DNA of 64,000 nucleotides from the NCBI GenBank assembly GCA_045636845.1, contig JAZTYG010000011.1, positions 1,345 to 65,344 of the forward strand, given 5' to 3'. The stretch's first letter is position 1, and each line of letters begins with the position of its first letter. Under the pieces are notes generated by a model, which saw nothing but the letters and a program-made list of their open reading frames with translations, was not told the DNA's origin and did not search any database. The DNA comes from Candidatus Scatosoma sp. (GTDB taxonomy: Bacteria > Bacillota > Clostridia > Christensenellales > Borkfalkiaceae). Below, piece by piece: positions 36,623-62,975 of this stretch. Made by a program: the position numbers and the translations under genes.

Positions 36623-36641
36623 TTCAACGCGTACCTGCCCC
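36623..36641 (-). repeat. oriented 20-nt word, copy 1 (non-coding, 12 nt after a stop codon)
   Basis: Plus strand ttcaacgcgtacctgcccc. One substitution in the 13-nt core. Confidence 0.7.
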
Positions 36642-36652
36642 TTGGCTTTGGG

Positions 36653-37282
36653 TTAAACCGTATATTTTGCCGATAATTTTAAGAGGGCGGCGCACATATC
36701 ATTCATACCCCGTAACTCCTCAACCGTCCAAACTGTTTTTCCGCGATACAAGGAAAGAATTTTCTCCATTTCTTCCGCCTGCAAACGCTCCGCAATGCTC
36801 AAAGGGGCGCTTTTAACCTTTCCCAACAAAGCACGCACATAACCAAGGCGTGCGCGAACCTGCGTTGTCTTCACCTCATTCTCCACACGCAAGCCGTCCT
36901 GCAATCGGGCGCGGATATAGGCATTTTCCCTTTGCGGAAGGGCATATTCTACCCTTTTTGCCGTTTCCGCCTGCATTTTTTTCCTTTTCGCAACCCTTTC
37001 GCGCCTCAATATCATACCAAACAGCAATAGATATACGCTGCCGCCAAAGACAAGCAACAGAGAAACGCCTGCCCATGCGACCTCTTTTGCAATACCGAAA
37101 AAGGGAGTAAAAATACCCAAACCGCCAAAAACCACAGCGGAAAATGCAACATAGATACGGGTATCCTTGCACCCGTACGAGATTGCCGCCAACAAAAGGA
37201 ACAATCCTGCAATCATGCAAATTACCACCGACCAAACCGCTTCTTTTTGAAAAAAGTCTACACACCATTCGATTATTCGCAT
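36653..37282 (-). CDS. hypothetical membrane protein (209 aa, 3 TM + basic helical C-domain)
   Basis: GGAGG 7 nt before the ATG. TM segments: VWSVVICMIAGLFLLLAAISY, IYVAFSAVVFGGLGIFTPFF, AWAGVSLLLVFGGSVYLLLFGMIL. No family recognised. Confidence 0.6.
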   Translation of the reverse strand: MRIIEWCVDFFQKEAVWSVVICMIAGLFLLLAAISYGCKDTRIYVAFSAVVFGGLGIFTPFFGIAKEVAWAGVSLLLVFGGSVYLLLFGMILRRERVAKRKKMQAETAKRVEYALPQRENAYIRARLQDGLRVENEVKTTQVRARLGYVRALLGKVKSAPLSIAERLQAEEMEKILSLYRGKTVWTVEELRGMNDMCAALLKLSAKYTV

Positions 37283-37368
37283 AAAAAATCCTCCGTATAG
37301 GCATATTCCCTATTCGAAGGACTTCTTTTTTGTTATTTTTGTCGAAAAACGACCTCTTTTGTCAAAGG

Positions 37369-40300
37369 TTACGGCATTTCCACCTGGAAACCTTGGTTAA
37401 TATTAACGATGGCGCAACGGATTTTTTCTTCATGGATACCTAAAATTTTTGCCGTAGCTTGACGGTACAAATGCAGTTGCGCCTTGTAATGCGCCGCCAA
37501 ATATTCCGCGCCGCCCTTAGAGAACTTATAATCGATAATCTGCACCTCGCCGTTTTCGCCAACCGCAAGCAAGTCGATTGCGCCTTGGAAAATAACCGTT
37601 TCCTCTTGGTTGTTCGCCCACGCAGGATGCGCGCCCTGCGCCTTTGCAAAAGTATCCCCAACGGGCAGCGCCACCAAGAATTTTTGTTCTTTGTACAAGC
37701 GTTTTCCTTGCAGCTGCTTGAATACAGAATTTGACAAAATTTCCAACAATTTTTCTTCAGAAAGCAAGTTCACCGCATACCTGCCCCCTTCATTTGCCTT
37801 TTCACACACTTCGGAAATGATTTCCTTCAAGCGTGCTTTTTCCACAAACTTACCCTGTTCATCATACATAAGGTCAAAGTTAAAATCTTCCAAAAAGGCG
37901 TGATAAGCGACACCGATTTCCTTACCTGTATCCGTTTCATCCGCATCAAACGTCCTTTCCACCGACAGGGGTTGTTCTTGCTCCATAGCTTGCTCATACG
38001 ACCGCATTAAGCCCGTCGCCGAACTCTTTACAGGCAAGTTTTCCATACCCTCAAAGGCATACTTCCACAAGAACGCGTCCTTGATTTGCCCCGCAAGGAC
38101 TTCATCCGGACGAAACACAAGCGCAGTACGCGCCTGCTTCGGCATATCTTGCAAATGATCTTCTACGATATAATCTTTCCATACGGAGAAGTTGGTAAAC
38201 TCCGCAAAGGAATGGGCATATTTTACATCGGGCATCGGGATAGGTTCGGTAAAGAGCATATGCAAGCCGTATTTCGCGCGCGTCAACGCAACATAATACA
38301 GGTTTAGCCCGTCGGCAAGAGAGCTTTCCTCTTCCTTGATTTCGTGCAAGCGGCGCAACACTGTCGTACGCTTCACCATTGTTTCCGCCTTGAAGGCGCG
38401 GGGCGCGAGCCCGTACACTTCTTCCACGAATACCTCATCACGATCGGTACCGCGGAAGGCTTCGCTAAGGTTGTCCAAAATAACGATGGGATATTCTAAC
38501 CCCTTCGAGGAGTGCATCGTCAAGACCTTGACCGAATCCTCACCGCCGTTTTCGCTGTATTCAATTTTGTAATCCATATCACGCAAACGATCCAAGAACT
38601 CGTGTACACAAAGAGGCTCGGGGTTGGTCGTTTCCTCAATAAAACGGTTCATACGGCGAAGCGCCGAAACGCCGTTCGGACGGGACAACAAATCCGCCTC
38701 CATACGGGTTTCCGAAATAATCCTCGTCAACAACTCCCCTGCGTCCAAAACACGGGAAAGGGTACGGATTTCCTCATAATAGTTGTAGAATTTTTGCAAT
38801 TTTTCCGACAAGGCGTCCTGTTTTTCCTGCATATAACGCTTGCACGCTTTACGGAAGAAATGCTCCTTGCTGTAAGCAAGACGAATGGTTGCCAAATCAT
38901 CCACCGTCAAGCCGCCCACAGCCGACAGCAACGCGCTGCAAAGAGGGATATCCTGCTCTGCGTTATCAATCAAGGACAGCAAGTCAATCAACATTTTCAC
39001 TTCGGAGAAATCGCAAATATTGACAGCCGCCGCGGCGGTTACAGGCACACCTTCAAACGAAAGCGCCTCCACCGTACGCGCAATTTGCCCCTGCTTTTTC
39101 CTCGACAGCACGGCAATATCCGAATAACGCACAGGGCGGTATTCCTTCACGTCGGGATCGTAGAAGGTTTTACTTCTTTCCTCGTCGATGATATGCCGAA
39201 TGGTTTTTGCGAGCACACTCATCTCTTGTTCTTCACGGTTGGCTTGCTGCATAACCGAGTACACGCCACGCTCTAACAGGTCCTCTTTGGGTGCTTTTCC
39301 GATGAAGTGAATACACACTCTACCATCGTTCAACGCATACCTGCCCCCCTTCTCCATGTAAGAACCGCGCGCGTAGTCCACGGCGCACACCTTCTTGGTC
39401 ATAGCGAGGGCGAATTGAGAATTGACCGCATCCAACACCTTATCCGAGCTTCGGAAATTTCGCGACATAAACAAATTTGCACCGCCGTTTTCCTCGAACT
39501 CCGTTTGCTTTTCCACAAAGAAACGAGATTTACTGCCGCGGAAACCGTAAATCGCCTGCTTCACGTCCCCCACAAGGAAAAGATTTTCACCGCTCATGCG
39601 CGAAATCAGCGCTTCCTGTACGGGGTTCACATCTTGATATTCATCCACGAACACAAAACGGTATTTTTGACGCATTTCCGTAACAACCTCTTCGTTGTCC
39701 AACAACGCGAGCGCCTTATGCTCCAAATCGTTGTAATCCAAGACGCCGCGTTCCAACTTCAGGCGTTCGTACTTCTCATCAAAACGCAACAAGTACTCCG
39801 CCAAAATCGCCGCAGTCCTACCCGATTGCAGAAAATCCTCCAGCTCTTCCTCACGGGTGAGCATCTTTGCAAGCTCTTCGTCCACAATTTTAACAATGCG
39901 GTCCTTCAAAAAGGAGAGCTTTTCACGGTATTCTACACGCTCCGCGCTATCCTTTTTCGTACCGCGGTTGACGGTGAATTTAGGCTTTTGCACAGCACAC
40001 GCCGCAAAATAGTCCTTCGCATACATCAACTCGTCCAAAAGCGCCAACAACTCATCGCAAAGGGAAAGCTGCAGGCTTTTTTCGTCCGCCAAGAAGTAGG
40101 CGCGCACATCTTCCACCAGCTCGTAATAATACCTACATTTTTCCTGTAATTTCTTGTATAAATCCGCGCATACCGCTTCAAAAGTTTCCACCGTATAACC
40201 CTTCGAATTTTCAAGATATGCACGATAATCCGCGCGGTTGCGTAATTCTTCATAGGTCTTTAAGAAAATTTCACGCAAAGCACGATCGCTCTTCTTTCTC

Positions 40301-40791
40301 CAATACAAGGACAAGAGGTAGTTAAAGTTCTCCTCCTTCCGTTCGTAGCCTTCTTCCAACAAATCGTCCAGCGCCATATTTTTCAACGCCATACCTTCCG
40401 CATCATCACCGCCGATTACGCGGAAACTACTGTCGACCCCTGCAAAGTAAAAGTGAGAACGAAGCATCTTCGCACAGAAGGAATGAATGGTAGAAATGTC
40501 CGCGCCGGGCACCTCCGCAAGTTGCTTTTTCAAGATATCCCGACGATCCGCCGTGGTGGTATCGCGGTTGATTTCCTCAATCAATTCTTTACAAAGCTTT
40601 TCCTTCATCTGCGCCGCCGCTTTCTTGGTGAAGGTAACGGCGAGGATTTCCCCTACGCCCGTACCCTCCTTAATCAAGCGGATAATTTTTTCAATCATAA
40701 CGGTAGTTTTGCCGCTGCCTGCGGAGGCGGAAACAATGGTTTTACCCTGCGATTCAATCGCGCGTAATTGTTCTTGTGTGAAATTCGCCAT
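37369..40791 (-). CDS. addA: ATP-dependent helicase/nuclease subunit A (AddA/RexA)
   Basis: UvrD/Rep-type motifs: ASAGSGKTTVM, VDEYQDVNPVQ, LTMHSSKGLEYPIV. C-terminal PD-(D/E)xK nuclease: GAIDLLAV...IIDYKFSK. Starts 3 nt after addB. Confidence 0.9.
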   Translation of the reverse strand: MANFTQEQLRAIESQGKTIVSASAGSGKTTVMIEKIIRLIKEGTGVGEILAVTFTKKAAAQMKEKLCKELIEEINRDTTTADRRDILKKQLAEVPGADISTIHSFCAKMLRSHFYFAGVDSSFRVIGGDDAEGMALKNMALDDLLEEGYERKEENFNYLLSLYWRKKSDRALREIFLKTYEELRNRADYRAYLENSKGYTVETFEAVCADLYKKLQEKCRYYYELVEDVRAYFLADEKSLQLSLCDELLALLDELMYAKDYFAACAVQKPKFTVNRGTKKDSAERVEYREKLSFLKDRIVKIVDEELAKMLTREEELEDFLQSGRTAAILAEYLLRFDEKYERLKLERGVLDYNDLEHKALALLDNEEVVTEMRQKYRFVFVDEYQDVNPVQEALISRMSGENLFLVGDVKQAIYGFRGSKSRFFVEKQTEFEENGGANLFMSRNFRSSDKVLDAVNSQFALAMTKKVCAVDYARGSYMEKGGRYALNDGRVCIHFIGKAPKEDLLERGVYSVMQQANREEQEMSVLAKTIRHIIDEERSKTFYDPDVKEYRPVRYSDIAVLSRKKQGQIARTVEALSFEGVPVTAAAAVNICDFSEVKMLIDLLSLIDNAEQDIPLCSALLSAVGGLTVDDLATIRLAYSKEHFFRKACKRYMQEKQDALSEKLQKFYNYYEEIRTLSRVLDAGELLTRIISETRMEADLLSRPNGVSALRRMNRFIEETTNPEPLCVHEFLDRLRDMDYKIEYSENGGEDSVKVLTMHSSKGLEYPIVILDNLSEAFRGTDRDEVFVEEVYGLAPRAFKAETMVKRTTVLRRLHEIKEEESSLADGLNLYYVALTRAKYGLHMLFTEPIPMPDVKYAHSFAEFTNFSVWKDYIVEDHLQDMPKQARTALVFRPDEVLAGQIKDAFLWKYAFEGMENLPVKSSATGLMRSYEQAMEQEQPLSVERTFDADETDTGKEIGVAYHAFLEDFNFDLMYDEQGKFVEKARLKEIISEVCEKANEGGRYAVNLLSEEKLLEILSNSVFKQLQGKRLYKEQKFLVALPVGDTFAKAQGAHPAWANNQEETVIFQGAIDLLAVGENGEVQIIDYKFSKGGAEYLAAHYKAQLHLYRQATAKILGIHEEKIRCAIVNINQGFQVEMP
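37769..37788 (-). repeat. oriented 20-nt word, copy 2 (in addA, frame 0: GGRYAVN)
   Basis: Plus strand ttcaccgcatacctgccccc. Confidence 0.8.
39329..39348 (-). repeat. oriented 20-nt word, copy 3 (in addA, frame 0: GGRYALN)
   Basis: Plus strand ttcaacgcatacctgccccc(c). Confidence 0.8.
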
Positions 40792-40794
40792 TTA

Positions 40795-43700
40795 TTACTC
40801 CTCCCCTTCCCGTTGTCTTTTTGCAATTTTTGCAATCACACCTGTATCCACAGCAGGTTCTTTTCTCGGTTGTACACAGTCCTTGTTAAAACCGCACATA
40901 CCGCCATATTTACAATATTCACAGCTCTTATCATAGGGGGATGCCGCAACATACCCTGCCTTCAACTCCTTACAGCCCTGTCGAGCCACATGTATCGAGT
41001 AATCAATGAAATCACGGAAGGTTTCCTCATCCATAACACGCTTTGTCCTTGCACTGTTCTTCAAGGCGGCAGGGAAGTACTCACTCTTCACCGTTTCTTC
41101 CACCTGCGAAAGCCCTTTATCACCGCAAAGCAACGCCTCTTCCGACCCATTGATAAAGCCGCGCATGCGGAAACGGCCTTCATCATCCGAGACATAATTT
41201 ACCGACGCGGGGAAGTAAAAGACCCCAGCAGGTATGCGTTCACCTTTCAATTCTGACATATAAAGCTGTAACTGAAGCTTCTGTCCTGTATAGTACGATG
41301 TCGCCGAATCGTCAATCGTACCCGTCTTATAATCGATGATACGCACATATTTATCCGTACCATCTACGCGGTCAACTTTACCGTTGAAATAATCCGCGGA
41401 AATGAGCTCCTCCGCCTTCTCCACAAGGAAGTCAGAATTTTTAATTTGTCGATATGCAGCCGCCGCAACGTCCACCCCTTCTTGAAGAAGCTTGTCCGAG
41501 AACACCTCGCCCGATGCCGTATCCTGTTGCATAAGGTAAATGGATTTTTGAAGAAGTCTCGAGCCTTCCTCACGCGCAAACGCACGCAATTCCTCTTCCG
41601 TTTCAAAACGCGAAACTTCCTTTGTGGTCACCTGTAACAATTCGTGGATAAAGTTCCCCGTATCCACCGCAAGCACCGTTGCTTCTTCGCGTTCTTTGAG
41701 GTGCAAGCCACGCTCCGCAAAGTTCTTAAACGGGCAATTAAAGTAGCTTTCCAAGCCTGTCGGTGATACCTTTCCGTCGTGGAAAAACAGTTCCTCGCCA
41801 CGTTCAACGCATACCTGCCCCCCTCGTTCCGCCAAATAGTCGTCTTTTTCGGTTACACTCAACTTATCCAAAGCCGTAAACAAAGACGAGTATTGCAAGC
41901 GTGTATCTTCGCGTTTTGCCTCGTATTCACTCTTTTCAATAAGCAACTGTCGAATGGCAGGTGCAACCGCCGAACACTTATACGCAAAATCGCTAGGCAA
42001 CATTTTTTTACGGCGAGGCAATTTCCCACCGTTCACCTCAACAAATAATCTATCAATATAACGGAATACATCGCTCAAGGAGGGTTCACTGCCATCGGCA
42101 GCCAAAGGATAGCTAAGATGCAAAGTATCGGTAAACGCGCAAAGATTTAAGCATACGCTTTCACGGGCACGCAGGTTAACCTCCGCCACCGTTGGTTCCA
42201 TCATCGCCTTCACCTCGGCAAGACGGGCAATTTCCTTATCTGAAACAATGGCCGTATCCGCCGATGCCCTCGGTACGCTTTCCGTCATACCCATCGCAAA
42301 CAAAACGGTTGCCTTTTCAATACGGCTGTCGGTAATGTCCCCGATAAACACCGCATCCACCTTCACAGGGATAAGGGAAATCTCCGTTGCCTCCAAGCCG
42401 TTTTTCAAAACCGCCTCAAATTCTGCAACCGTCATTTCTTTGTCGCCCGTCAAAAGCTCCGCCTCCGTAAGCACCCCTTCCAAGGCCTTATCAATTTGTG
42501 CAAGATATCCTTTTTGTGCCACGTCATCAATGGTATTTTCAAGCGCCACCAAGGCATTTTGAATGTCAAAATCTACAAGAATTTTTCGTACCGCGCGGCA
42601 ATAGTCTCGACCATGCCCACTTGTTTTGATGCCACTCGTTGCCAAAAGCACTCTTTCGCGCGCGTTTTCGAGCGCCTCGCGATTGTACCCTTTTACCGCA
42701 TCGCCGTCCTTAATCGGGCGCTTCGCGCCACCGCGGTAGTTGGCGAATTTATACAAATAATTGCGGTATTCGTCACTCTCACCAAACAGCACATTTTGCG
42801 TCAAAGATTGTACCGCAATCGGGGAAAAGTTTTCACGCACAACACGGAAACAATCAAGCAAAAAACGACTAACAGGGTGTCTTCTTAAAGATTTCTTCTC
42901 ATCAATAAAGTAAGGAATACTATATTCCGCAAGCGCCTTTTTTAAGGGCAACGCATACGACGCAACGTCGGGTACAAGCACGGAAATATCCCGATAACGA
43001 AGGGTAGGATTTTCCGTAACCGCGCGACGGATTTTCGTCGCAACATATTCCGCCTCCACCGTTTTATCATCCGCTTCAAACAGACAAATCTTTTCCGTTT
43101 CCGTCTTCACACTCGCACGAATGGGGTTAAACAGCCCTTTGCGTAAAATTTCCGCCTCGCCGCCAAGCGGTTTGCCAAGGTCGCGCACCTGCACCTTGCC
43201 ATATTCCGCACAAACACCCGAAAATGCCTGCACTGCGCGGTTGGCGTAAATTTCTTCCTCGCCGCAACAAAAGATACCGATTACATTCGCAGCCGTTTCT
43301 AAAACCGCGCGGATGGCTTCGCGCGCCTGCGCCGTAAAGGAATTGTACCCCAAAAAGAATACATTGACCCCTTTCAATACGCCTTCCTTGCGGATTTTTG
43401 CAGGCAACAGGGATAAATATTTACTCTCATCCACCAAACCGCTATCCTGTAAAAATGCGGTGTAGCCCTCATAAATCACAGCCAAGTCCGACACCTTTTT
43501 CTTCAACATATCATCAGGCAAAAGAGCAACACTCTCTTTCAATACCTCAGGTGTAATTTCCGAAGCGGACAACTGTGCCAGCGTTTCATAGATGCAACGG
43601 GCATTATTCCCGATGCCTGTGGTTGAGGTAAAGCATTGCAAGGCTTTCGCGCGTTGTAAACGGGTCATTACTTCCCCTACCGCCATAACCGAGCCTTCTT

Positions 43701-43923
43701 TGCTAATCGTATGTTCTTCCGTCTTCAAAAAGCGTGCAAAGGTTGCCACATGCGAACGGAATGTACCGCCCAAACGCGCAAGCAACGCCCGCTCCGCAAG
43801 CAAAGTCAAACGGTCCTCACAAAAAATGAGGTTGACCTCACCCCTCTCCTCATAAGCCGCCGCATATTCTGCCATTACTTCCATACATTGCAACAATGTA
43901 TAAGCCTTCAAAATTGCGTTCAT
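40795..43923 (-). CDS. addB: ATP-dependent helicase/nuclease subunit B (AddB/RexB)
   Basis: AAGGAGGGG RBS. Degenerate helicase-like N-part. C-terminal RecB-type nuclease (DRVDG...IIDYKTG) bracketed by Fe-S cysteines (FNCPFKNF ... CEYCKYGGMC). Gene order is addB then addA. Confidence 0.85.
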   Translation of the reverse strand: MNAILKAYTLLQCMEVMAEYAAAYEERGEVNLIFCEDRLTLLAERALLARLGGTFRSHVATFARFLKTEEHTISKEGSVMAVGEVMTRLQRAKALQCFTSTTGIGNNARCIYETLAQLSASEITPEVLKESVALLPDDMLKKKVSDLAVIYEGYTAFLQDSGLVDESKYLSLLPAKIRKEGVLKGVNVFFLGYNSFTAQAREAIRAVLETAANVIGIFCCGEEEIYANRAVQAFSGVCAEYGKVQVRDLGKPLGGEAEILRKGLFNPIRASVKTETEKICLFEADDKTVEAEYVATKIRRAVTENPTLRYRDISVLVPDVASYALPLKKALAEYSIPYFIDEKKSLRRHPVSRFLLDCFRVVRENFSPIAVQSLTQNVLFGESDEYRNYLYKFANYRGGAKRPIKDGDAVKGYNREALENARERVLLATSGIKTSGHGRDYCRAVRKILVDFDIQNALVALENTIDDVAQKGYLAQIDKALEGVLTEAELLTGDKEMTVAEFEAVLKNGLEATEISLIPVKVDAVFIGDITDSRIEKATVLFAMGMTESVPRASADTAIVSDKEIARLAEVKAMMEPTVAEVNLRARESVCLNLCAFTDTLHLSYPLAADGSEPSLSDVFRYIDRLFVEVNGGKLPRRKKMLPSDFAYKCSAVAPAIRQLLIEKSEYEAKREDTRLQYSSLFTALDKLSVTEKDDYLAERGGQVCVERGEELFFHDGKVSPTGLESYFNCPFKNFAERGLHLKEREEATVLAVDTGNFIHELLQVTTKEVSRFETEEELRAFAREEGSRLLQKSIYLMQQDTASGEVFSDKLLQEGVDVAAAAYRQIKNSDFLVEKAEELISADYFNGKVDRVDGTDKYVRIIDYKTGTIDDSATSYYTGQKLQLQLYMSELKGERIPAGVFYFPASVNYVSDDEGRFRMRGFINGSEEALLCGDKGLSQVEETVKSEYFPAALKNSARTKRVMDEETFRDFIDYSIHVARQGCKELKAGYVAASPYDKSCEYCKYGGMCGFNKDCVQPRKEPAVDTGVIAKIAKRQREGEE
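41803..41822 (-). repeat. oriented 20-nt word, copy 4 (in addB, frame +1: RGGQVCVE)
   Basis: Plus strand ttcaacgcatacctgccccc(c). 21 of 21 nt identical to copy 3. Confidence 0.8.
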
Positions 43924-43949
43924 AGCCCCTCCTTAATCTCTTTTTCATT

Positions 43950-43978
43950 ATTATACCATATTTAAAGGTAATTTTTCA
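43950..43978 (-). promoter_or_regulatory. candidate addBA promoter (TG-extended -10)
   Basis: Minus strand TGgTATAAT (-10 at 43955-43950). Weak -35 TGAAAA at a 17-nt spacing. 27 nt upstream of the addB ATG. Confidence 0.45.
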
Positions 43979-44019
43979 GCTTTTTTTCACAATAAATTTG
44001 TGGAAATCTCAATTTTGTT

Positions 44020-44048
44020 TTTACAAATTTGAAATTATGTGGTATAAT
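44020..44048 (+). promoter_or_regulatory. promoter of the divergent lipoprotein gene
   Basis: TTTACA (44020-44025), 17 nt, TGgTATAAT (-10 at 44043-44048). 58 nt upstream of ATG 44107. Confidence 0.55.
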
Positions 44049-44106
44049 AATAGAAAATGAATGATTTTTACAGCGAAGCGTAACCGCTTTCCGTATAGGA
44101 GTATTT

Positions 44107-45087
44107 ATGAAAAGGAAGAAAATTTCCACCCTACTTGCCCTCCTTTTGGGCTTGACCGCACTCGGCGGTTGTACAAACACCGATCAAAAAGTGGGTTTTG
44201 CGAACTTTTGGAGCGCGAATTCCACAGGTTCGGAAGAAGAAATCCACGAAACCTTGGTTTACGACGTTGCATTTGAAAGCACGGCGGCTAGCTTTGTAGG
44301 CTATACGCTTAATTATAAAGACGGGAAATACACCACCGTTTTGACAAGTGCGAAGGAAAACGATAAAACCGTTTACACCTATACCACGGAGTTGACGATT
44401 ACCGCGCAATACACCTTGAACAATGTCACGGAAGAATGTCAAGATGTGGTTACCTCAACGGTGAAATTCTACGCGGCGACCTATGGTTTGCAACCCATTT
44501 CATCGGAAAAGGAATGGAGCGCAAGCACCCCCAACGGCACGACAGGCACAAAGACGAGCGAATGTTATTCGCAATACCACTACACCTCCAAGGTTGTGTA
44601 CAATGAAGATTGCTCTGAAGGCACTTCTACTGTAACGCAATACCTTTCCGAGGGCGATCCCAAAGCCGATGAACACACCTTCACCATCGACCAAAAGAAA
44701 TTCCGTTTCTTGGACAATGAACAAGTGTTGCTTGCTTTACGCGCGGTAAGAAATAGCACCTCGTCCGCAAAGGTAAATGCATATAGCCCCTTCGTAAAGG
44801 CGGTGCAACAGGTGGCTTGGAAGTTCGACGCGGATAAGAGCGCGGAGTTCTCCTTCTACAAGAACGGTAGCGAAGAAAAAGTGAAGAGCACGATCACCTA
44901 TCGTCCCGTTAGCATTGTTTTGAACGAAAAGAACCCCGGGGCAACGCAAACGGCGTGGATTGCGAAAAAGCCCGAAACCTCTAACTCCGCCAACACAAAC
45001 CGTAATGTGATGCTCCGTTTGGAAACCCCCTTGTCCTATAACTTGGGTAAGTTGGTTTACACATTAAATTCCGCATCTTATAAATAA
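44107..45087 (+). CDS. hypothetical lipoprotein (326 aa); the only plus-strand gene
   Basis: AGGAG 7 nt before the ATG. Signal MKRKKISTLLALLLGLTALGGC (lipobox LGGC). Beta-rich mature part with no family recognised. Confidence 0.7.
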   Translation: MKRKKISTLLALLLGLTALGGCTNTDQKVGFANFWSANSTGSEEEIHETLVYDVAFESTAASFVGYTLNYKDGKYTTVLTSAKENDKTVYTYTTELTITAQYTLNNVTEECQDVVTSTVKFYAATYGLQPISSEKEWSASTPNGTTGTKTSECYSQYHYTSKVVYNEDCSEGTSTVTQYLSEGDPKADEHTFTIDQKKFRFLDNEQVLLALRAVRNSTSSAKVNAYSPFVKAVQQVAWKFDADKSAEFSFYKNGSEEKVKSTITYRPVSIVLNEKNPGATQTAWIAKKPETSNSANTNRNVMLRLETPLSYNLGKLVYTLNSASYK

Positions 45088-45097
45088 AGGTAAAAAT

Positions 45098-45132
45098 GAA
45101 AACAGCTTGCAAAATCTGCAAGCTGTTTTTTG
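45098..45132. terminator. bidirectional intrinsic terminator between the convergent lipoprotein gene and hpt
   Basis: ACAGCTTGCA (45102-45111), loop AAATC, TGCAAGCTGT (45117-45126): a perfect 10-bp stem flanked by an A-run upstream and T6 downstream. Confidence 0.8.
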
Positions 45133-45162
45133 TTGTCTTAATACAAATAATCTAAATAACCC

Positions 45163-45711
45163 TTACTTTTCATACACCCAACGGCTAAGGATACCCACAT
45201 AGGGCAGGTCGCGATATTTTTCCGCATAATCCAAACCGTAGCCGATAACAAATTCGTCCTCAATTTCAAAGCAGGTGTAATCCGCCTTGATATCCACTGT
45301 ACGGCGCGCGGGTTTATCAAGCAACGTTACGATGCGAAGGCTGGCAGGGTTGCGAGTTCTTAACATCTCTTTCAACGCGTACATGGTATTGCCGGAATCG
45401 ATAATATCCTCTACAATCAACACTTCTTTCCCTTCAATATTAGAGAAAAGGTCTAAGCCTACGGACAATCTACCGCTGCTGCTTGTACCAAAACCGTAAG
45501 AGGAAACCTTCATAAATTCTACGCTGGTAGGTGTCTTCATCGCACGGATTAAATCGGCAAAAAAGATTACGCTGCCCTTCAAAATACAAACGGCAATCAC
45601 CTCTTTGCCTTGATAATCCTCGTCAATTTTTTTCGCCAACTCCTTAATACGGTCCGCAATTTGCGTTTCAGAAAGTAACACCCTTTCAATTTCCGATTTT
45701 TCCATGTTCAT
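45163..45711 (-). CDS. hpt: hypoxanthine phosphoribosyltransferase
   Basis: PRPP-binding motif EVLIVEDIIDSGNTM. Also KGSVIFFADL and GYGLDYAEKYRDLPYVG. 182 aa. Directly downstream of tilS, as in many Firmicutes. Confidence 0.9.
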   Translation of the reverse strand: MNMEKSEIERVLLSETQIADRIKELAKKIDEDYQGKEVIAVCILKGSVIFFADLIRAMKTPTSVEFMKVSSYGFGTSSSGRLSVGLDLFSNIEGKEVLIVEDIIDSGNTMYALKEMLRTRNPASLRIVTLLDKPARRTVDIKADYTCFEIEDEFVIGYGLDYAEKYRDLPYVGILSRWVYEK

Positions 45712-45727
45712 AAGTATATCTCCTGCT

Positions 45728-47065
45728 TTATTTTTTTCGTATGGATATAGTAAGTGTTTTTTTTGTGTCAGCCGTCACCTTTACTTTTTCAGATATTTCC
45801 ACACCGCATACCACATAAACCTCACCGTTTTTTTCCGCAATCAACGGTAAATATTCACGCTCGGCAACGGGCGTGTTTTCTTCATTGAAAAACTTTTTCA
45901 AGGTCTTTTTCCCACCGCCAAAGCGTTGGATAAAATCGCCTTCTTGTCTAAACCGATATACCGCAGTTGCAGGGATTTTATCCCTATCCACCTGCAATAC
46001 GCGCCACGCCCCGTCCGAAGAAATCGGGTCAAGTGACACCTTCACCTCATACCTGCCCCCGTCAAATCCGTTTTGGGTAAAGATTTGCGCGATAGGTTTT
46101 TCTGCGAGCTCCTCTTCCTTTAGATGGTAAAAACGAACGCCCTTCTCCGTCTTTTCAGCCTCTACGCCCTTAGGAAAGGATAAGCGCGAGCCACGCTCTA
46201 GCCCCTGCAAACGGAAGGCATTTTCCAAATGCAAAGCGGTATAATCACGCTCTACGCCCAACGCTTTCAAAGCCATCAAGCAGGCGCGGCGAAACAATGG
46301 CTTTTTATCGCAAAAAGCAACCGTTATCCCGTCTAATTCCACCGTCAACAAGTCTTTTGCATATTCATACAGCAAACCGTCGTCTTCCGTCGCCAACCGA
46401 GAAAAACGCACAAGGTTTTCCATCGCGCCCGACACAGTTTCTTCCATCAACGGAAGGATGTTTAACCGCAATTTATTACGCGTTGCATCCAACTCAAAGT
46501 TGGTGCCATCCACGCGATACGCCAAGCCGTTTTCCTTTGCATACGCCTCAATATCCGACCTTGTCCAAGAAAGGAAAGGACGAATAATTTTCCCGTTCAA
46601 CTCGACCATGCCCCCCACGCCCGTGAGAGAAGTGCCACGCATCAAACGAAAAAGCACCGTTTCCGCATCGTCGTTTTTATGGTGCGCCGTAGCGATGAAA
46701 TCCGCCTTACCTTCCGACAATAAACGGTTAAAGCAGTCTTGGCGAAAGGCACGAGCCGCCGTTTCCAAGCTTTGCTTATCCCGTTTCGCGCGCGCAGGAC
46801 AATCTTCCGAAAACGCATACAAAGGTACGCCCTGTCGAAGGCAAAGCTCTTCCACAAAGCGCGCGTCCGCGAGGCTTTCCTCGCCGCGAATCCCATGTTC
46901 ACAATGCACAGCGCAAAGGGCGTAGCCATATTCCTTTTCTAACCCTTTCAAATAATGTAAGAGCGAAACGGAATCCACGCCGCCGCTAATCGCCACGCAA
47001 ATATGTTTTCCCGAAAAATCCTGCAAGTTTAACATACAATTAGTATAAACCCTATCTCCTATCAA
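45728..47065 (-). CDS. tilS: tRNA(Ile)-lysidine synthetase
   Basis: PP-loop VAISGGVDSVSLL. Also HHKNDDAETVLFRLMRG. Start uncertain: TTG 47065 overlaps the upstream stop (TTGA); ATG 47035 is the alternative. Confidence 0.85.
   Translation of the reverse strand: MIGDRVYTNCMLNLQDFSGKHICVAISGGVDSVSLLHYLKGLEKEYGYALCAVHCEHGIRGEESLADARFVEELCLRQGVPLYAFSEDCPARAKRDKQSLETAARAFRQDCFNRLLSEGKADFIATAHHKNDDAETVLFRLMRGTSLTGVGGMVELNGKIIRPFLSWTRSDIEAYAKENGLAYRVDGTNFELDATRNKLRLNILPLMEETVSGAMENLVRFSRLATEDDGLLYEYAKDLLTVELDGITVAFCDKKPLFRRACLMALKALGVERDYTALHLENAFRLQGLERGSRLSFPKGVEAEKTEKGVRFYHLKEEELAEKPIAQIFTQNGFDGGRYEVKVSLDPISSDGAWRVLQVDRDKIPATAVYRFRQEGDFIQRFGGGKKTLKKFFNEENTPVAEREYLPLIAEKNGEVYVVCGVEISEKVKVTADTKKTLTISIRKK
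46041..46060 (-). repeat. oriented 20-nt word, copy 5 (in tilS, frame 0: GGRYEVK)
   Basis: Plus strand ttcacctcatacctgccccc. Confidence 0.75.
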
Positions 47066-48699
47066 TAAACCACTTCAATCCCATCGGGGGCATTGACGGT
47101 GGTTTTTACTTCGCCGTTGTCCTGCAAGGTATGCTCTACCGTTACCACACCGCAAGCCGTCGGGAAGTTCACTTTTACATATTTCAAACCGCTTAAATGA
47201 GGGGTAATTACAATTCGACGCATACCTGCCCCCTCCGTTTTGATACCGGCAACCGTTTCCACAAGGTAAGGAATTACCCCTGCCGACCAAGCGTGGCAGA
47301 AGCTGTGACGGAAGCTCTTGTAACAGAACTTACCGTAATCGCCGTGAATATCCTTCTTGCCTTCTTGGGGCATTTCGTCCAAGCGTGTGCAATTATCCAA
47401 CCAGTCGAGGTCAAAATCTTCCCAGAAGGTCGTTGCACCTACGGACAACATACCACCGTAATATTCCTTCATCATCGAAAGCGCCGCTTCATATTCGCCG
47501 TAGCTTGCAACCGCCGTCAAGATGGGGTACGATTGGAAGGTGGAAAGTCCTTGCGCGCCGCCACGAAGCAGGGTTTCCTTCATCCTATCGTTGCCCATAT
47601 CCGCCCAAACGCCAAGTGCCGCGATTTGTTTATAAATCTGGATATCATAATCCTTTTTCGCAATTCTTGCAAGCACGTCATCACAAAGGGAAACGTCTTC
47701 GCCGAAATCCACAAGCAATTCTTTCAACGCCAAAACCGCTACCTTGGTAAGGTAGGCAACGCCTGCGAAGCGTTCTGCTGCACGTTGTTCGTGTCTATCT
47801 TCACCTGCCTGCACGCAAGAAGGCCAATCGATATAATTAAACGAATAGGACACCTTCCCGTCCTCCGCTACGCAGGGGGAAACAATTTGTTCCAAAATCC
47901 CTTTCGCATAGGGCATGTATTTGATGATTGCGTTTTTATCCCCACTCGCGTGGTATGCCTCGCGAAGGTTGATAAGCCACCAAAGGGAATAGGTAGGCAT
48001 ATTATTGATATACATCGGCAACGGAGATTGTTCCATCGAGAAGTCTAAACAATTCAAGGTTTCGGGGATATCCCCAAACAAGCAATTTGCCGCGCGCACC
48101 TCGGGATAAAGGTCACCGATCCACACCAAGCGGTCGCGTTTAATACCATCCCAAAGGTAACCATTTTGCAAGCAAAGGCGCAAGGTGTAAGCCGCCGTCG
48201 TCCAAATATCATTGACAAGCGCGTCGTCACATTCAAACGAGCCAACCTCTTCACGGGTATCGGTATCCACCGCCGCCACCACCGATTTCAAACCGATGGC
48301 ACTGTCCTCGCCGAGGGTGTCGATACGAAGGAAACGGAAACCCGTTTGTCCAAAGGTCATATCCGAGTAGTTTCTCAACTCCATCGTAAAATCGCGCAAG
48401 GAATGGTCGTTGGTCGCGCCGTAGCCCTCTTCCCCTTCTTTCAATTCCGCACAAACTTCCCCTACTGATTCACCAAAACGCAAGCGCACGTTGCCGTTTC
48501 CTCTTGCATAATAGGTCAAAATTCTTGCGCCACCCGAAAGTTCTTTGCCGAAATCAAGGATAATGTACGATTTCCCATTTATTTCACAAAGATTTGGCTC
48601 ATTCAAGCCGATTTGCAGGGGGGTTACCTGCATCAAGCCTTCTACATTTTTTACATTGCCTTGCGTAGCAATTACTTTTACCGCATAAGTATATTTCAT
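47062..48699 (-). CDS. (alpha/alpha)6-barrel glycosidase-like protein, GH78 (alpha-L-rhamnosidase)-like
   Basis: N-terminal beta-sandwich with RLRFGES..E and QTGFRFLRI. WDGIKRDRLVWIGDL resembles the DG.KRDR..W.GD motif of Bac_rhamnosid6H domains. No signal peptide. Substrate not inferable. Confidence 0.5.
   Translation of the reverse strand: MKYTYAVKVIATQGNVKNVEGLMQVTPLQIGLNEPNLCEINGKSYIILDFGKELSGGARILTYYARGNGNVRLRFGESVGEVCAELKEGEEGYGATNDHSLRDFTMELRNYSDMTFGQTGFRFLRIDTLGEDSAIGLKSVVAAVDTDTREEVGSFECDDALVNDIWTTAAYTLRLCLQNGYLWDGIKRDRLVWIGDLYPEVRAANCLFGDIPETLNCLDFSMEQSPLPMYINNMPTYSLWWLINLREAYHASGDKNAIIKYMPYAKGILEQIVSPCVAEDGKVSYSFNYIDWPSCVQAGEDRHEQRAAERFAGVAYLTKVAVLALKELLVDFGEDVSLCDDVLARIAKKDYDIQIYKQIAALGVWADMGNDRMKETLLRGGAQGLSTFQSYPILTAVASYGEYEAALSMMKEYYGGMLSVGATTFWEDFDLDWLDNCTRLDEMPQEGKKDIHGDYGKFCYKSFRHSFCHAWSAGVIPYLVETVAGIKTEGAGMRRIVITPHLSGLKYVKVNFPTACGVVTVEHTLQDNGEVKTTVNAPDGIEVVY
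47214..47233 (-). repeat. oriented 20-nt word, copy 6 (in the GH78-like gene, frame +2: EGAGMRR)
   Basis: Plus strand ttcgacgcatacctgccccc. Confidence 0.8.
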
Positions 48700-51774: not shown

Positions 51775-54700
51775 TTAGCTAAGCGCAATGTCTTTCAAAT
51801 AAAGGGTATTCCCTGCGTAAATATTAAAGGATAATTCGGTACAAGCCTCCGCAAAGTTAGAAATGTCCACCGTGAAGGTTTGCCATACACCAAGCTGCAA
51901 GCGAACCGCATCATCATCCGCCTTGTCGCCTACCTTAAATTGAATGTATTGTTTATTGCCATTGCTAGCATCTACGAGTGCGCCGGGAAGTCCATTGATC
52001 GAGCCGTTGTCGGGTTTTACACGGAGAGCGAACGGGTTCAATACGCCCGTACCAACAGCATTTTCCATATACAAGCTGAAGGTAAGGGTCGTTTTACCTT
52101 TCAAGAGTGCCGTATTGATAAACAACTTGCCCTGCGAGTTTGCCGTAACTGCATATACGTTTTGACCGTTAAATTCAACCGCCTGCGCCGTAACTGCGCC
52201 GTCTGCGTACATTTCCGCAGTCGCTACGTTTACACCGCCGTATTGCAAGCCGTTTACCGTAACCTTTTTATACTTCGTCCAGTCAATTTCACCGTTTTCA
52301 AAACCACAGTAATAGTTGTAGCAATCTTCAATTGCGCCATTAGCTTTCGTAAGCACAATTACCGTACCGCCTACCATCGATTTAGAACCCGTTGCCTTTG
52401 CATAACCGCCGTCCACAGTACCATCGCCGTTCAACCAGTTATAACGGTCATATTCGCTCGATTTCAAGCCGTAGGTGAAACGGATACCATCATACACAAC
52501 GCTTACGTTGTTGCAATGTTCGTGACCTACGAAGATAGAGTCAACACCCATGTTCTTCATGGCATTGTAAACGGTTTTAGAAGTATCCCAAGGACCTTTC
52601 ATTTGTCTGCCGATATAACCAAAGTCGGTGTCTGCAACCCCTTCCATCGTATCAAGGTTGATGTTTTGCATCTTTTCGTTTTGGTTAAAGCCGTACTTTG
52701 CGTACGCCTCGCCAAACACCGATTGCTGAATGTGATATGCAAAGGAAATCTTCACATCGGGCGCATACTTTTTCAAGGTCGTAATTTGTTCGGTGTACCA
52801 GTTGATTTGATCCGGCTTAAAGCCTGCAAAGTTATAAAGAACTTTACCGCTATCCTTATCTGCTTGGGTTGCATTGCCGCAAGCGTTACTATCCATCATA
52901 TAGAATACGCGAAGAAGCTCGCCGCCTTGCGCGATACCTACCGAATAGTTACCATTCCCCGACACATTATTTTGTTCAAAGTAGCAATATTCGGAAGCTT
53001 CCAACTGTGCACACTGCCAGTCAACCCCCTTTGCACTTTCGTTATCGTGGTTACCAAATACAGGCGACCAAGGAATTTGGAAACTGTCCATAAAGTTGAT
53101 AAACGAGGTCAAAGCCGTGCCTGCATCGTCAAACTCACCGTAAATAACATCACCCGTAATAATGATAAAATCGGGGTTGGTTGCGGTGATAACTTCCGTT
53201 AAGTAATCAAAGCAACGTTCGTCCATTTTATCCGTTGCCCAAAGGTTCTTATCTACGCCGTCACGACCGGGGCGGGTTTGCGCAGCGTCAATAATCTGCG
53301 TATCGGACAACTGCAACACAACAGGGTTGCGGCCAACGGGAACTTCTACCACGAAATCGGGAATTTCCATCACCGATTCGGGTACATCGGGTTCGTATAC
53401 GCTCCAGTCAATTTTACCATCTTCAAAACCGCAGTAGTAGTTGTAGCAATCCTCAATCACGCCGTCTTCATCCGACAACACGATAACCGTACCGCCGATG
53501 AGAGGGGTATTGTCTTTCGGCATTTCATAGCCATACGCCCCCTTCACAGTACCGTCCGAAAGAAGGGCATTATAACGGTCGTATTCACTCGACTTCAAGC
53601 CGTAGGTAAAGCGAATACCTTCATATACAACGCTTACATTGTTGCAATGTTCGTGGCCCACGAAGATGGAGTCAACGCCCAACTTCTTCATGCCTTCATA
53701 TACCTTATAATCGGTATCCCAAGGCCCTTTCATTTGTCTGCCGATATACCCAAAGTCGGTATCCGCAACACCTTCCATCGTATCAAGGTTGATATCTTGG
53801 TATTTGTTGCCTTGGTCAAAACCATACTTTTCATACGCATCCGCAAATACCAACTGTTGAATGTGGTATGCAAACGAAATTTTCACATCGGGCGCATACT
53901 TTTTCAAGGTCGTAATTTGTTCGGTGTACCAGTTGATTTGATCCGGCTTAAAGCCTGCAAAGTTATAAAGAACCTTACCGCTATCCTTATCCGCTTGGGT
54001 TGCATTGCCGCAAGCGTTACTATCCATCATATAGAATACACGAAGAAGCTCGCCGCCCTGCGCGATACCTACCGAGTAGTTACCGTTACCCGACACATTA
54101 TTTTGTTCAAAGTAGCAATATTCGGAAGCTTCCAACTGTGCACATTGCCAGTCAACGCCCTTTGCGCTTTCGTTATCGTGGTTACCGAATACGGGCGACC
54201 AAGGAATTTGGAAGCTGTCCATAAATTCGATAAACGCAGGCAATACCGTACCGTTATCGTCAAATTCACCGTAAATCACGTCACCCGTAATGATGATAAA
54301 ATCGGGGTTGGTTGCGGTGATAACTTCCGTTAAGTAATCAAAGCAACGTTCATCCATCTTATCCGTTGCCCAAAGGTTCTTTTCTACGCCGTCACGACCA
54401 GGGCGGGTTTGCCCTGCGTCGATGATTTGCGTGTCGGATAACTGCAGCACGATGGGGTCGCGCCCAACGGGTACTTCTACCACGAAATCGGGAATGTTCA
54501 ACACCGAATACAAAATGGTATCCGCTTTATTAATCTTATCCGTACCCGCCTCGTCTGCGAAATAGCTGCTGCAATAATTACAGGTCCAGTGTTCTAACAA
54601 GCCGTTTTCTCTGCCGTTGATGGGATAACCTTCATGATGCGTAAGGTCGTGCGGCGCTTTTGCCAAGGTTACATCGGACAATTTTACCGCCTGCGTGCAA

Positions 54701-55101
54701 GCCTCATCTGCAAAGCTCGTTGCACAAGTCGAACAGGTCCAATGTTCTAATCTACCGCCGGAAATACAGGTAGCTTCAATGCCAGCGGTGTACTTCAAGG
54801 TATGTTCCAGCTTCGCCTTCGTAACCGCATCCAAGGTCGTTTCCTTCTTACCCATCGCGTCCTCGAAAAGCGCGCCGCAGGTACACTTGTAGTATGTTTC
54901 ATTACCTTCCATAGCGCAGGTCGCTTGGCGTTCGGATACGCGCACCATAATATGCTTGTGTTCGCCGCTTGCTTCGCTGTCTACGCTTTCGATTTGCGTA
55001 CTTTCACCCGACGTACCGCCGCCCATCAAAGCCGACAAATCGCACGCGGACAAAGCGCATACGCTCATCAAGCCCAACAATAAACCGATAATTTTTTTCA
55101 T
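51775..55101 (-). CDS. lipoprotein with 3 Cys-rich repeats, two tandem metallophosphoesterase (purple-acid-phosphatase-like) modules and a C-terminal beta-sandwich
   Basis: The track starts at TTG 55119; GGAGG lies 6 nt before ATG 55101 (MKKIIGLLLGLMSVCALSAC, lipobox LSAC). Each module carries LQLSDTQ, ITGDVIYGEFDD, FGNHDNES, AYHIQ, VGHEHCNN. The C-terminal ~155 aa are CBM-like. Confidence 0.8.
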   Translation of the reverse strand: MKKIIGLLLGLMSVCALSACDLSALMGGGTSGESTQIESVDSEASGEHKHIMVRVSERQATCAMEGNETYYKCTCGALFEDAMGKKETTLDAVTKAKLEHTLKYTAGIEATCISGGRLEHWTCSTCATSFADEACTQAVKLSDVTLAKAPHDLTHHEGYPINGRENGLLEHWTCNYCSSYFADEAGTDKINKADTILYSVLNIPDFVVEVPVGRDPIVLQLSDTQIIDAGQTRPGRDGVEKNLWATDKMDERCFDYLTEVITATNPDFIIITGDVIYGEFDDNGTVLPAFIEFMDSFQIPWSPVFGNHDNESAKGVDWQCAQLEASEYCYFEQNNVSGNGNYSVGIAQGGELLRVFYMMDSNACGNATQADKDSGKVLYNFAGFKPDQINWYTEQITTLKKYAPDVKISFAYHIQQLVFADAYEKYGFDQGNKYQDINLDTMEGVADTDFGYIGRQMKGPWDTDYKVYEGMKKLGVDSIFVGHEHCNNVSVVYEGIRFTYGLKSSEYDRYNALLSDGTVKGAYGYEMPKDNTPLIGGTVIVLSDEDGVIEDCYNYYCGFEDGKIDWSVYEPDVPESVMEIPDFVVEVPVGRNPVVLQLSDTQIIDAAQTRPGRDGVDKNLWATDKMDERCFDYLTEVITATNPDFIIITGDVIYGEFDDAGTALTSFINFMDSFQIPWSPVFGNHDNESAKGVDWQCAQLEASEYCYFEQNNVSGNGNYSVGIAQGGELLRVFYMMDSNACGNATQADKDSGKVLYNFAGFKPDQINWYTEQITTLKKYAPDVKISFAYHIQQSVFGEAYAKYGFNQNEKMQNINLDTMEGVADTDFGYIGRQMKGPWDTSKTVYNAMKNMGVDSIFVGHEHCNNVSVVYDGIRFTYGLKSSEYDRYNWLNGDGTVDGGYAKATGSKSMVGGTVIVLTKANGAIEDCYNYYCGFENGEIDWTKYKKVTVNGLQYGGVNVATAEMYADGAVTAQAVEFNGQNVYAVTANSQGKLFINTALLKGKTTLTFSLYMENAVGTGVLNPFALRVKPDNGSINGLPGALVDASNGNKQYIQFKVGDKADDDAVRLQLGVWQTFTVDISNFAEACTELSFNIYAGNTLYLKDIALS
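52234..53364 (-). repeat. intragenic tandem duplication, unit 2 (phosphoesterase module 2)
   Basis: See unit 1. The protein segments IPDFVVEVPVGR[DN]P[IV]VLQLSDTQIIDA...KISFAYHIQQ are almost identical. The C-terminal third of each unit is more diverged. Confidence 0.85.
53365..54495 (-). repeat. intragenic tandem duplication, unit 1 (377 codons, phosphoesterase module 1)
   Basis: The IPDFVVEVPVG codons start at 54495 and again at 53364, an offset of exactly 1131 nt. Roughly 500 nt of the units (about 53871-54360 vs 52740-53230) differ at only a few percent of positions by eye. Confidence 0.85.
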
Positions 55102-55148
55102 CTTATCCTCCAAATGCAATTCATTTGTTTTTTATTAAATTATTACAA

Positions 55149-62881: not shown

Positions 62882-62975
62882 TTGTCTATTTTCTCCACTA
62901 TTTTTTTCTTCATCTCAACCCTGCCCCCGCCGTTTTGCGGATAGCAAGCATTTTGATAAAACATATTACACTTAT

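Follow-up and report, generated by a model that had tools for sequence, protein, structure and literature searches.

Sequence-specific DNA uptake is, to our knowledge, known from two Gram-negative families only; we know of no uptake specificity in any monoderm, nor of any USS- or DUS-type signal ever seen in a Gram-positive lineage. Classical USS and DUS occur at a density of about 1 per kb. The Haemophilus USS combines a core with helically phased T-tracts and is tolerated in coding genes, USS pairs have been co-opted as terminators, and the proposed mode of action is a kink in the DNA at internal sites of uptake (PMC3458573). In the Neisseriaceae, which are diderms, the minor pilin ComP recognizes the DUS, a plain 12-mer that has no phased flanks. 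Other dispersed elements serve maintenance or topology. Chi, of 5-8 nt, and the 8-nt KOPS/SRS are short words read during translocation and have no flank structure, and REP/BIME elements are extragenic palindromes. Lastly, the gyrase motif of E. coli is symmetric and spans 130 bp, with a 36-bp centre and a flank period of 10.75 bp that is ascribed to GyrA-CTD wrapping (PMC6379681), and the S. pneumoniae enzyme has similar phased flanks and the cleavage rule GxxC (PMC12630141).

Here we analyze a word found in a 64,000-nt window of Candidatus Scatosoma sp. (GCA_045636845.1, contig JAZTYG010000011.1, positions 1,345-65,344). Six strong copies with 0-2 mismatches to TTCAACGCATACCTGCCCCC lie on the + strand, all at the positions given in the original prediction (36623, 37769, 39329, 41803, 46041 and 47214); besides these, the window holds two copies of lower score and a partial one in reverse orientation. 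Six copies were reached in 0 of 100 dinucleotide-preserving shuffles of the window (expectation 0.01). As predicted, five of the six strong copies share one exact 13-mer, CATACCTGCCCCC; the sixth, at 36623, was said to differ by one change and in fact differs by two (CGTACCTGCCCCT). Copies 3 and 4, described earlier as identical over 21 nt, match exactly over 24 nt. The flanks of the copies in the window are unalignable with each other, and the copies are therefore not part of a longer repeat. The 36-kb surface-protein block at 0-36 kb contains none, as had been claimed.

Copy 1 (36623..36649, +; PWM score 34.6 bits) is the one non-coding member that was expected among the six. It reads as the C-rich TTCAACGCGTACCTGCCCCT followed by a T-run and lies 11 nt past the stop codon of a 209-aa membrane-protein ORF (36653-37282, -), for which its G-rich strand is sense; its flank-phasing z is 2.9, and orthologous copies are present in four relatives (L017, L045, L062 and L101). 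Two copies fall in addA in phase 0: copy 2 (37769..37795, +; 39.5 bits) at aa 1002, read as GGRYAVN, and copy 3 (39329..39355, +; 39.0 bits) at aa 482, read as GGRYALN. The addB gene holds copy 4 at aa 701 in phase 1 (41803..41829, +; GGQVCVE; 43.8 bits) together with the partial reverse copy (41224..41243, -; GTGAACGCATACCTGCTGGG; 14 contiguous matching bases; 17.8 bits). The tilS gene carries copy 5 (46041..46067, +; 32.1 bits) in phase 0 at aa 336, read as GGRYEVK, and at aa 151 of the same gene lies a weak "form B" copy (46596..46622, +; GGMVELN; TTCAACTCGACCATGCCCCC; 16.4 bits), a variant also found at the AddA aa 1002 site in other species. Copy 6 (47214..47240, +; 35.8 bits) is in a GH78-like gene at aa 489, phase 2, read as GAGMRR; it is a TCGAA variant that avoids the in-frame TGA that TTGAA would give, and it is kept in L075 and L057. 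The other weaker copy (62909..62935, +; TTCATCTCAACCCTGCCCCC; 27.2 bits) is intergenic, between a DUF4886 gene and a GHL6-family gene. Pfam backs the gene identities originally assigned (AddA, AddB, TilS and GH78-like) as well as Hpt, and the frames proposed for the coding copies stand.

The word is not confined to this locus. We find it in more than 115 genome chunks, nearly all of them Ca. Scatosoma or uncultured gut Clostridia MAGs, and the matches outside the clade are a handful of singletons in other phyla at about chance level. In 735 kb of clade DNA there are about 270 sites above a codon-shuffled null. Once the seed copy of each chunk is removed, the density is about 200 recognisable sites per Mb, compared to about 1-8 in the shuffled null; this amounts to about 1 site per 4-5 kb and about 450 sites per genome. 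The carriers belong to at least 86 unrelated gene families, mostly housekeeping, and 63 of the 86 were seen once only, indicating a high turnover between species. Among 2.9 million viral contigs there are 3 matches, of which 1 is genuine, so the word is essentially missing from them. Like the DUS, it is family-restricted, spread across core genes, depleted in mobile DNA and present in paired terminator-like copies; unlike the DUS dialects, the "form B" variant is seen at just two sites.

Comparison between species reveals how copies arise and what keeps them. Orthologous sites with and without the word align without indels, from which it follows that copies arise by substitution and not by insertion; together with the unrelated flanks, this speaks against a MITE or other insertion-derived repeat. 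For instance, copy 2 is a lineage-specific gain: distant orthologues have GGMVE[LM][NK] at this site of AddA, with no indel, and GGMVE.. has become GGRYAVN in close relatives only. At the position of copy 3, 20-21 nt are identical in 7 species of 66-73% DNA identity, while B. subtilis AddA has GAAYPDN where the clade has GGRYALN. Copy 4 is kept in most orthologues and is degenerate in L049, L002 and L074. The word is also conserved at synonymous positions between species. These data show that a DNA-level constraint overrides protein sequence at hundreds of places, such as the change of M-V-E to R-Y-A in AddA.

We next consider placement. While 62% of the sites are intragenic, intergenic sites make up 38% against an expected 15%, a 2.5-fold enrichment. 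Most sit at the 3' end of a gene or where two convergent genes meet; divergent regions are poor in them, and many begin 4-15 nt past a stop codon. Coding copies occur in all three phases, with the G-rich strand sense in about 80% and antisense in about 20%, and the deficit in phase 2 arises because the word would carry an in-frame TGA there. Five head-to-head doubles, all between convergent genes and all with the same 15-nt offset, have the form and position of bidirectional terminators, and their sequences are predicted to fold into terminator-like hairpins. A reading at the RNA or protein level (a conserved peptide, a target of an RNA-binding protein or sRNA, or a half-terminator) could draw on the excess of sense copies, on the copies just past stop codons and on these hairpins. 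Against it, the three phases give three unrelated peptides, antisense and non-coding copies exist and have flank phasing as strong as the sense copies (see below), the word matches no Rfam family, and we found no consistent hairpin partner for single copies. The frame and orientation data have already largely refuted this reading, which we consider barely credible. Thus the earlier claim of a constraint acting on nucleic acid instead of protein is upheld by the three phases, both orientations, non-coding copies and synonymous-position conservation, and its extension to RNA is not.

Strict co-orientation had also been proposed. This holds for the strong copies in the window, but not for the partial reverse copy and not across the clade, where the bias is about 80% and 77-83% of sites have their G-rich strand as the leading one, in DNA that includes neither ori nor dif. 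The bias raises the question of whether the word is a polar maintenance signal, either an unusually long Chi for the clade's AddAB or a guide of the KOPS/SRS type for FtsK/SpoIIIE. E. coli Chi has a similar leading-strand share and density. Like Chi and KOPS/SRS, the word is G-rich, mostly on the leading strand and spaced at kilobase intervals in core genes (about 1 per 5 kb); addA and addB hold three of the strong copies, in a neighbourhood where near-perfect copies are about 20-fold denser than the clade average; and the core holds GGGCAGG, close to KOPS GGGNAGGG. However, composition alone predicts about 89% for a word of 10 G and 2 C at a GC skew of about 0.13, so that the observed bias does not exceed expectation, and in lagging-strand genes there are 10 sense and 8 antisense copies. 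In addition, the unit is 27 bp, three times longer than these signals, duplex phasing over 150 bp would be useless to single-strand scanning, and head-to-head doubles, which Chi and KOPS/SRS do not have, cancel polarity. We therefore regard both polar roles as very improbable, although density and orientation would suit a Chi.

The unit is TTCAACGCATACCTGCCCCC-n-TC-n-TTT, with conserved positions throughout its 27 bp. Beside this core, A/T patches recur every ~11.5 bp (11.5-11.75) for ~75 bp on either side, giving a total of ~150 bp, and the pattern is two-sided and roughly mirror-symmetric. The phasing is specific to the word, does not differ in strength between sense, antisense and non-coding copies, and recurs at 60 independent metagenome sites. 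The core itself is asymmetric and single copies are not palindromic, which together with the intragenic majority sets the word apart from REP/BIME. Each site carries about 27-32 bits (Rseq), compared to the roughly 13 bits (Rfrequency) needed to specify the sites. An approximately twofold excess of information is typical of USS and DUS and not of ordinary protein-binding site sets.

Given these flanks, the word might act inside the cell as an architectural or topological element, with the core nucleating a sequence-specific DNA-bending protein or serving as an optimal gyrase gate segment. The flanks would then wrap ~150 bp in a right-handed sense, and the sites would serve to control supercoiling or to tether loops, above all where genes end, as an analogue within genes of the BIME-2/REP gyrase sites in E. 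coli or of phage Mu's strong gyrase site. With the gyrase motif, the Mu strong site and the BIME-2/REP gyrase sites, the word shares a roughly symmetric footprint of ~130-150 bp, an AT/GC alternation whose period is slightly more than 10.5 bp, and a tendency to lie at the 3' ends of genes. Periods longer than 10.5 bp are consistent with a right-handed wrap or with the pitch that DNA has when supercoiled (PMC4132750), and our intergenic sites gather where positive supercoils accumulate, at 3' ends and between convergent genes, with few in divergent regions. But gyrase motifs are long and degenerate (PMC6379681), have no fixed word and are recognized by indirect readout around a staggered cut of 4 bp, whereas the word has an asymmetric, high-information centre (~27 bits). 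The GxxC rule is satisfied by GCCC only, at core positions 14-17, where the symmetry centre cannot be fixed. Unless transmission is biased, it is difficult to see how per-site selection would keep ~450 high-information sites per genome that cost non-conservative amino-acid changes and have a high turnover between species. No clade-specific protein of this kind is known. On balance we view an in-cell element of this kind, the main rival to the reading favored below, as possible but doubtful. In a more specific form, the sites would be sequence-addressed, nucleosome-sized particles in which the 27-bp word is the docking site of a clade-specific protein or topoisomerase and ~150 bp of DNA is wrapped right-handed; hundreds of these in coding sequence and at gene ends would form a new class of chromosomal architectural element and not a transfer signal, a scenario that we think rather unlikely.

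The features that an architectural role leaves hard to explain are those expected of a signal spread by biased transmission. Like the USS, the word is clade-specific and over-represented, joins a core to helically phased A/T tracts, occurs within coding genes in more than one frame and in either orientation, originates by substitution, is enriched in non-coding DNA, forms inverted pairs (terminators in the USS, terminator-like here) and carries far more information than specification needs. Based on this comparison, we tentatively favor the reading that this clade has a DNA signal of its own, dispersed through the genome and with the word as its core, and that biased horizontal transmission spreads and keeps it, as with uptake signals. 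The word could then be, with due reserve, the functional counterpart in this clade of the USS of Haemophilus and the DUS of Neisseria. Among the four roles originally offered, a DNA-uptake signal is the best match in anatomy and evolutionary behavior; the fourth, a binding site for some factor, is compatible with the data if narrowed to a factor, or a process, by which ~150 bp is bent or wrapped.

In the uptake model, a surface or periplasm-equivalent DNA receptor, such as a competence-pilus component or a ComEA-type protein, would bind the asymmetric ~27-bp duplex core, and the phased A/T patches would let the duplex fold or wrap sharply at the bound site while an internal stretch of DNA enters. 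Fragments with better matches would be taken up and recombined more often, and as they are favored, point mutations that improve the match to the consensus or the phasing of the flanks would accumulate wherever the protein tolerates them, most easily directly after stop codons. Head-to-head pairs would have been co-opted as bidirectional terminators. We infer both the identity of the reader and that the bias acts at DNA uptake and not at some other transfer or in-cell step.

Several observations count against uptake. Sequence-specific pilins have been reported from diderms only (PMC12378983), and the host here belongs to the monoderm Clostridia. The core is ~27 bp compared to 9 in the USS; the density of ~1 per 4-5 kb is several-fold below that of USS and DUS (~1 per kb in the USS). 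The two-sided phasing over ~±75 bp, where the USS has two one-sided tracts, is closer to the geometry of the gyrase footprint (PMC6379681). A supercoil-management element would likewise be expected to sit at the 3' ends of genes and between convergent ones, and the ~80% orientation bias speaks against uptake too, though composition can account for it. A motif screen for competence genes gave 0 matches in 620 proteins, a sample of ~0.3 genome-equivalents that carries no weight either way, and an MBL protein in L014 is without the ComEC competence domain.

A bias in transmission could also arise on the donor side, if the word were a chromosomal pac-like site at which the small terminase of a GTA or transducing phage assembles as an oligomeric ring, the DNA wraps around it and packaging of host DNA starts. 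Better sites would move more, a molecular drive resembling that of uptake, and the drive-type evidence is shared by both readings. The terminase small-subunit sites of SPP1 and P22 pac are thought to consist of an asymmetric core with wrapped, bent flanks, which the word resembles. Furthermore, gut Oscillospiraceae and Ruminococcaceae have been described as prominent in both GTA activity and generalised transduction (PMC12946183). On the other side, terminase or GTA genes are not seen within the 64-kb window, ~450 sites per genome are far above the need of a headful packaging series, and viral contigs are nearly devoid of the word. The GTAs known to us package host DNA without dispersed specific sites. 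We judge a pac-like origin to be improbable.

The host clade consists of abundant, uncultured gut Clostridia. If the word is an uptake signal, self-preferring gene exchange would have evolved in monoderms too, and the word would provide a sequence handle in the search for its receptor and a mark that separates core from recently acquired DNA in the MAGs of this clade. If instead a wrapping protein or topoisomerase reads it, it would be the first high-information word that places a nucleosome-sized DNA wrap inside bacterial genes.

We find six + strand copies of the word TTCAACGCATACCTGCCCCC in the window, at 36623, 37769, 39329, 41803, 46041 and 47214, with 0-2 mismatches per copy. None of 100 dinucleotide-preserving shuffles of the window reached six matches, confirming the six co-directed copies of the original prediction. 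The 13-nt core, CATACCTGCCCCC, is exact in five of these as claimed, but the sixth copy deviates at two positions rather than one. An alignment of 140-nt contexts confines the sharing between copies to ~21 nt. With the identities of AddA, AddB, Hpt, TilS and the GH78-like protein confirmed by Pfam, the word is read in phase 0 in addA (twice) and tilS, in phase 1 in addB and in phase 2 in the GH78-like gene, while one copy is non-coding and lies 11 nt past a stop codon. The large ORFs of the region are all on the - strand, and GC skew of the + strand is negative throughout the window. Using a position weight matrix, we identified weaker copies in the orientation of the strong ones (+) at 46596 in tilS and at 62909 in intergenic DNA, and a partial reverse-oriented copy (- strand) at 41224-41243 in addB. 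The same matrix gives no site in the 0-36 kb surface block, which bears out its predicted lack of the word; this 36-kb block, with its BspA-type LRR surface proteins, subtilase and MoxR-VWA set, is accessory-type cargo.

The window has several other features. The - strand gene run at 1-36044 encodes giant BspA-type leucine-rich-repeat surface proteins (for example, one of 2910 aa and another of 2579 aa that includes a subtilase domain) and also holds a MoxR-DUF58-VWA-BatA set. All four copies of a 12-mer, CAAGCCGTTTTC, are on the + strand (10416, 46523, 54598 and 57098), and neither their host genes nor their flanks are related; the 735 kb of clade DNA has a single copy. Either a codon/peptide coincidence (the coding strand encodes ENGL) or another word, specific to the species, could account for it. 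Two adjoining metallophosphoesterase genes (51775-56954) have three internal repeat units in common, with the same 12-mers at ~52.9, ~54.0 and ~55.9 kb. Lastly, a 326 aa ORF without a Pfam match lies between addB and hpt (44107-45087, +) and is the sole sizeable + strand ORF of the otherwise all-minus 64 kb.

A scan with TTCNNCNCATACCTGCCCCC over one representative genome per species matched at least 115 eight-kb chunks. Among the matches listed, ~100 come from chicken, human and ruminant gut MAGs of Candidatus Scatosoma and its uncultured relatives in the Clostridia, and the others are singletons in unrelated phyla, about as many as expected by chance. Further copies (≤3 mismatches) are present in 42 of the 115 listed chunks, against 0.05 expected for the whole set. 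A 29-position matrix trained solely on copies outside the search-pattern selection finds ~270 sites in 735 kb over a codon-block-shuffled null. Once each chunk's seed copy is removed, this corresponds to ~200 sites per Mb, or one per 4-5 kb and ~450 per 2.2-Mb genome. The word is therefore dispersed clade-wide and not confined to the window locus. Near-perfect copies are far scarcer, probably 4-25 per genome, so that the window, with five strict copies in 10.6 kb, is an unusually rich patch. A looser bipartite definition (TCA.C.C.....TGCCCC) did not enlarge the family, whereas the weight matrix did. The viral collection gave three matches only, one of them genuine. This full copy with its T-run lies at ~1559-1578 of L118, an IMG/VR contig labelled viral (4956 bp, GC 0.48) that is either a prophage of the clade or a host fragment.

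The 139 coding copies (≤3 mismatches) are spread over 86 unrelated protein clusters, most of them housekeeping (AddA, AddB, MutY-type glycosylase, TatD, DnaB, SpoIIGA, NFACT/RqcH, EPSP synthase and others), and 63 of the 86 were seen once, implying high turnover. Although AddA, AddB, MutY and DnaB carry copies, we do not claim an enrichment in genome-maintenance genes, as such families, sorted by eye and partly confirmed afterwards, number ~5-6 of 86. The gene for SpoIIGA, the sporulation sigma-E processing peptidase, has two copies in the clade chunk L031 (~3677 and ~4071), and its presence is a sign that sporulation genes exist in this uncultured clade.

Ten of the chunks are orthologous addA-addB regions with 64-73% DNA identity. 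Seven species share copy 3 unchanged over 20-21 nt although its flanks have diverged, copies 4 and 6 are kept in most species, with degenerate versions in some, and copy 1 has orthologues in four. The copy-2 site in more distant species reads TTCAnCnCGACCATGCCCCC, with no indel. Among 120 in-clade AddA homologues, GGRY is invariant at the copy-3 site while adjoining residues vary; at the copy-2 site GGRYAVN is limited to close relatives and GGMVE[LM][NK] is found in other species. Copies thus arise by point substitution, with non-conservative amino-acid replacements among the changes, and are thereafter kept at the nucleotide level. A longer repeat, MITE or insertion is ruled out, given that flanks are unalignable and orthologues lack indels. 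Many AddA orthologues encode GGMVE[LM][NK] at aa 1002. A related sequence, TTCAACTCGACCATGCCCCC (form B), encodes GGMVELN; the window tilS has it exactly at 46596-46615, and AddA of another species (L045, ~4570-4589) has it at the aa 1002 position with a single mismatch. Form B could be the word in a weak or ancestral state; as a second dialect it counts just 2 sites (up to 2 mismatches) in the DNA examined.

A peptide origin is ruled out by the different peptides in three phases and by B. subtilis AddA, which reads LGAAYPDN at the copy-3 site. An RNA element is likewise ruled out, as there is no Rfam match, no tRNA and no consistent hairpin partner for single copies. Taken together, an explanation at the level of RNA or peptide is scarcely credible. 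A promoter or sigma-54-like reading found no fit by inspection.

The extended motif, TTCAACGCATACCTGCCCCC-n-TC-n-TTT, comes out alike from seed copies and from unascertained ones; T occupies +24 in 91 of the 118 seed copies and in 56 of the 66 extra ones. Outside the core, A/T content swings from ~0.35 to ~0.8, with peaks near -66, -54, -43, -30, -19 and -8 and near +25, +34, +44, +56, +68 and +80. The best-fit period is 11.5 bp on either side, with no pattern at random positions. This phasing survives when the set is cut to 117 sites whose flanks are unrelated, is equally clear for sense, antisense and non-coding copies, and recurs with the same peaks at 60 independent metagenome sites (period 11.75 bp). 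A generic ~11-bp periodicity is ruled out by anchor controls (motif sub-words, T-runs and C-runs), whose amplitude is 0.003-0.03 versus 0.09-0.11 for the word; genome-wide autocorrelation shows chiefly the codon period. All six window copies score positively against the flank template (z 0.7 to 2.9). The profile has approximate mirror symmetry around a point within the core or shortly after it, centres ~5.75 bp apart being equivalent. Such flanks cannot stem from codon structure, RNA or peptides, and are the signature of double-stranded DNA bent or wrapped over ~150 bp. At unascertained sites the core holds ~27 bits and the flanks ~5, somewhat inflated by the score threshold, while ~450 sites in a 2.2-Mb genome need ~13 bits.

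Using an ORF-level codon model, we drew a gene map that covers 85% of the DNA and classified 253 sites as sense (coding strand = G-rich strand; 126), antisense (31) or non-coding (96; 38% versus 15% expected). Convergent gene ends hold 25 of 73 classifiable intergenic sites on 14% of intergenic bases, whereas divergent regions have fewer than their share. Of the 29 sense copies in tandem regions, 11 start 4-15 nt past the stop codon of the upstream gene. Five head-to-head doubles with an identical 15-nt offset (L018, L042, L095, L106 and L114), all between convergent genes, have the form of putative bidirectional terminators. At 77% of sites (83% of those with clear skew) the G-rich strand coincides with the strand of positive skew, on which ~85% of coding positions also lie; sense:antisense is 116:23 for leading-strand genes and 10:8 for lagging-strand genes. 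Given that composition alone predicts ~89% leading for a ten-G/two-C word at skew ~0.13, there is no evidence for polarity beyond composition. Strict co-orientation holds for the strong window copies but is a small-sample effect, and a polar signal like KOPS or a long Chi, as originally proposed, is poorly supported and very improbable.

The main rival to our preferred reading is a wrapping or topoisomerase station acting within the cell. The long symmetric flanks of the word closely match the published footprint of gyrase, a symmetric 130 bp in which a 36-bp centre sits between flanks with a 10.75-bp period (PMC6379681), and a comparable arrangement is described for S. pneumoniae (PMC12630141); the placement at gene 3' ends also suits supercoil management. 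However, the core is asymmetric and high in information, and hundreds of such sites are hard to keep by selection site by site; we consider this station possible but doubtful.

We rank first, tentatively, a transfer-biased, uptake-signal-like element, because the combination of features is that described for uptake signal sequences. Like them, the word is clade-specific, spread by substitution into all frames, both orientations and non-coding DNA, conserved at the nucleotide level with turnover between species, depleted in accessory and viral DNA, enriched between genes with paired copies of terminator form and position, flanked by helically phased A/T, and in twofold information excess. In the Haemophilus/Pasteurellaceae USS, a core with helically phased T-tracts is tolerated in coding genes, pairs are co-opted as terminators, and the proposed action is DNA kinking at internal uptake starts (PMC3458573). 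The USS has far shorter and less symmetric flanks than our word, however, and the density of the word is lower than that of classical uptake sequences. Uptake specificity has no precedent in monoderms (PMC12378983), and a screen for competence/pilin signatures, underpowered at 620 proteins (~0.3 genome-equivalents), gave no match. We found no report of the word, nor of an uptake-type or architectural word in the clade or in Gram-positives. A donor-side packaging signal, a variant of the drive idea, is unlikely, although gene transfer agent activity is reported for gut Clostridia families (PMC12946183). If the uptake-signal-like reading holds, the word would join the known uptake-signal-like genome words as a further variant; if the wrapping station is instead true, it would be a new kind of element altogether.
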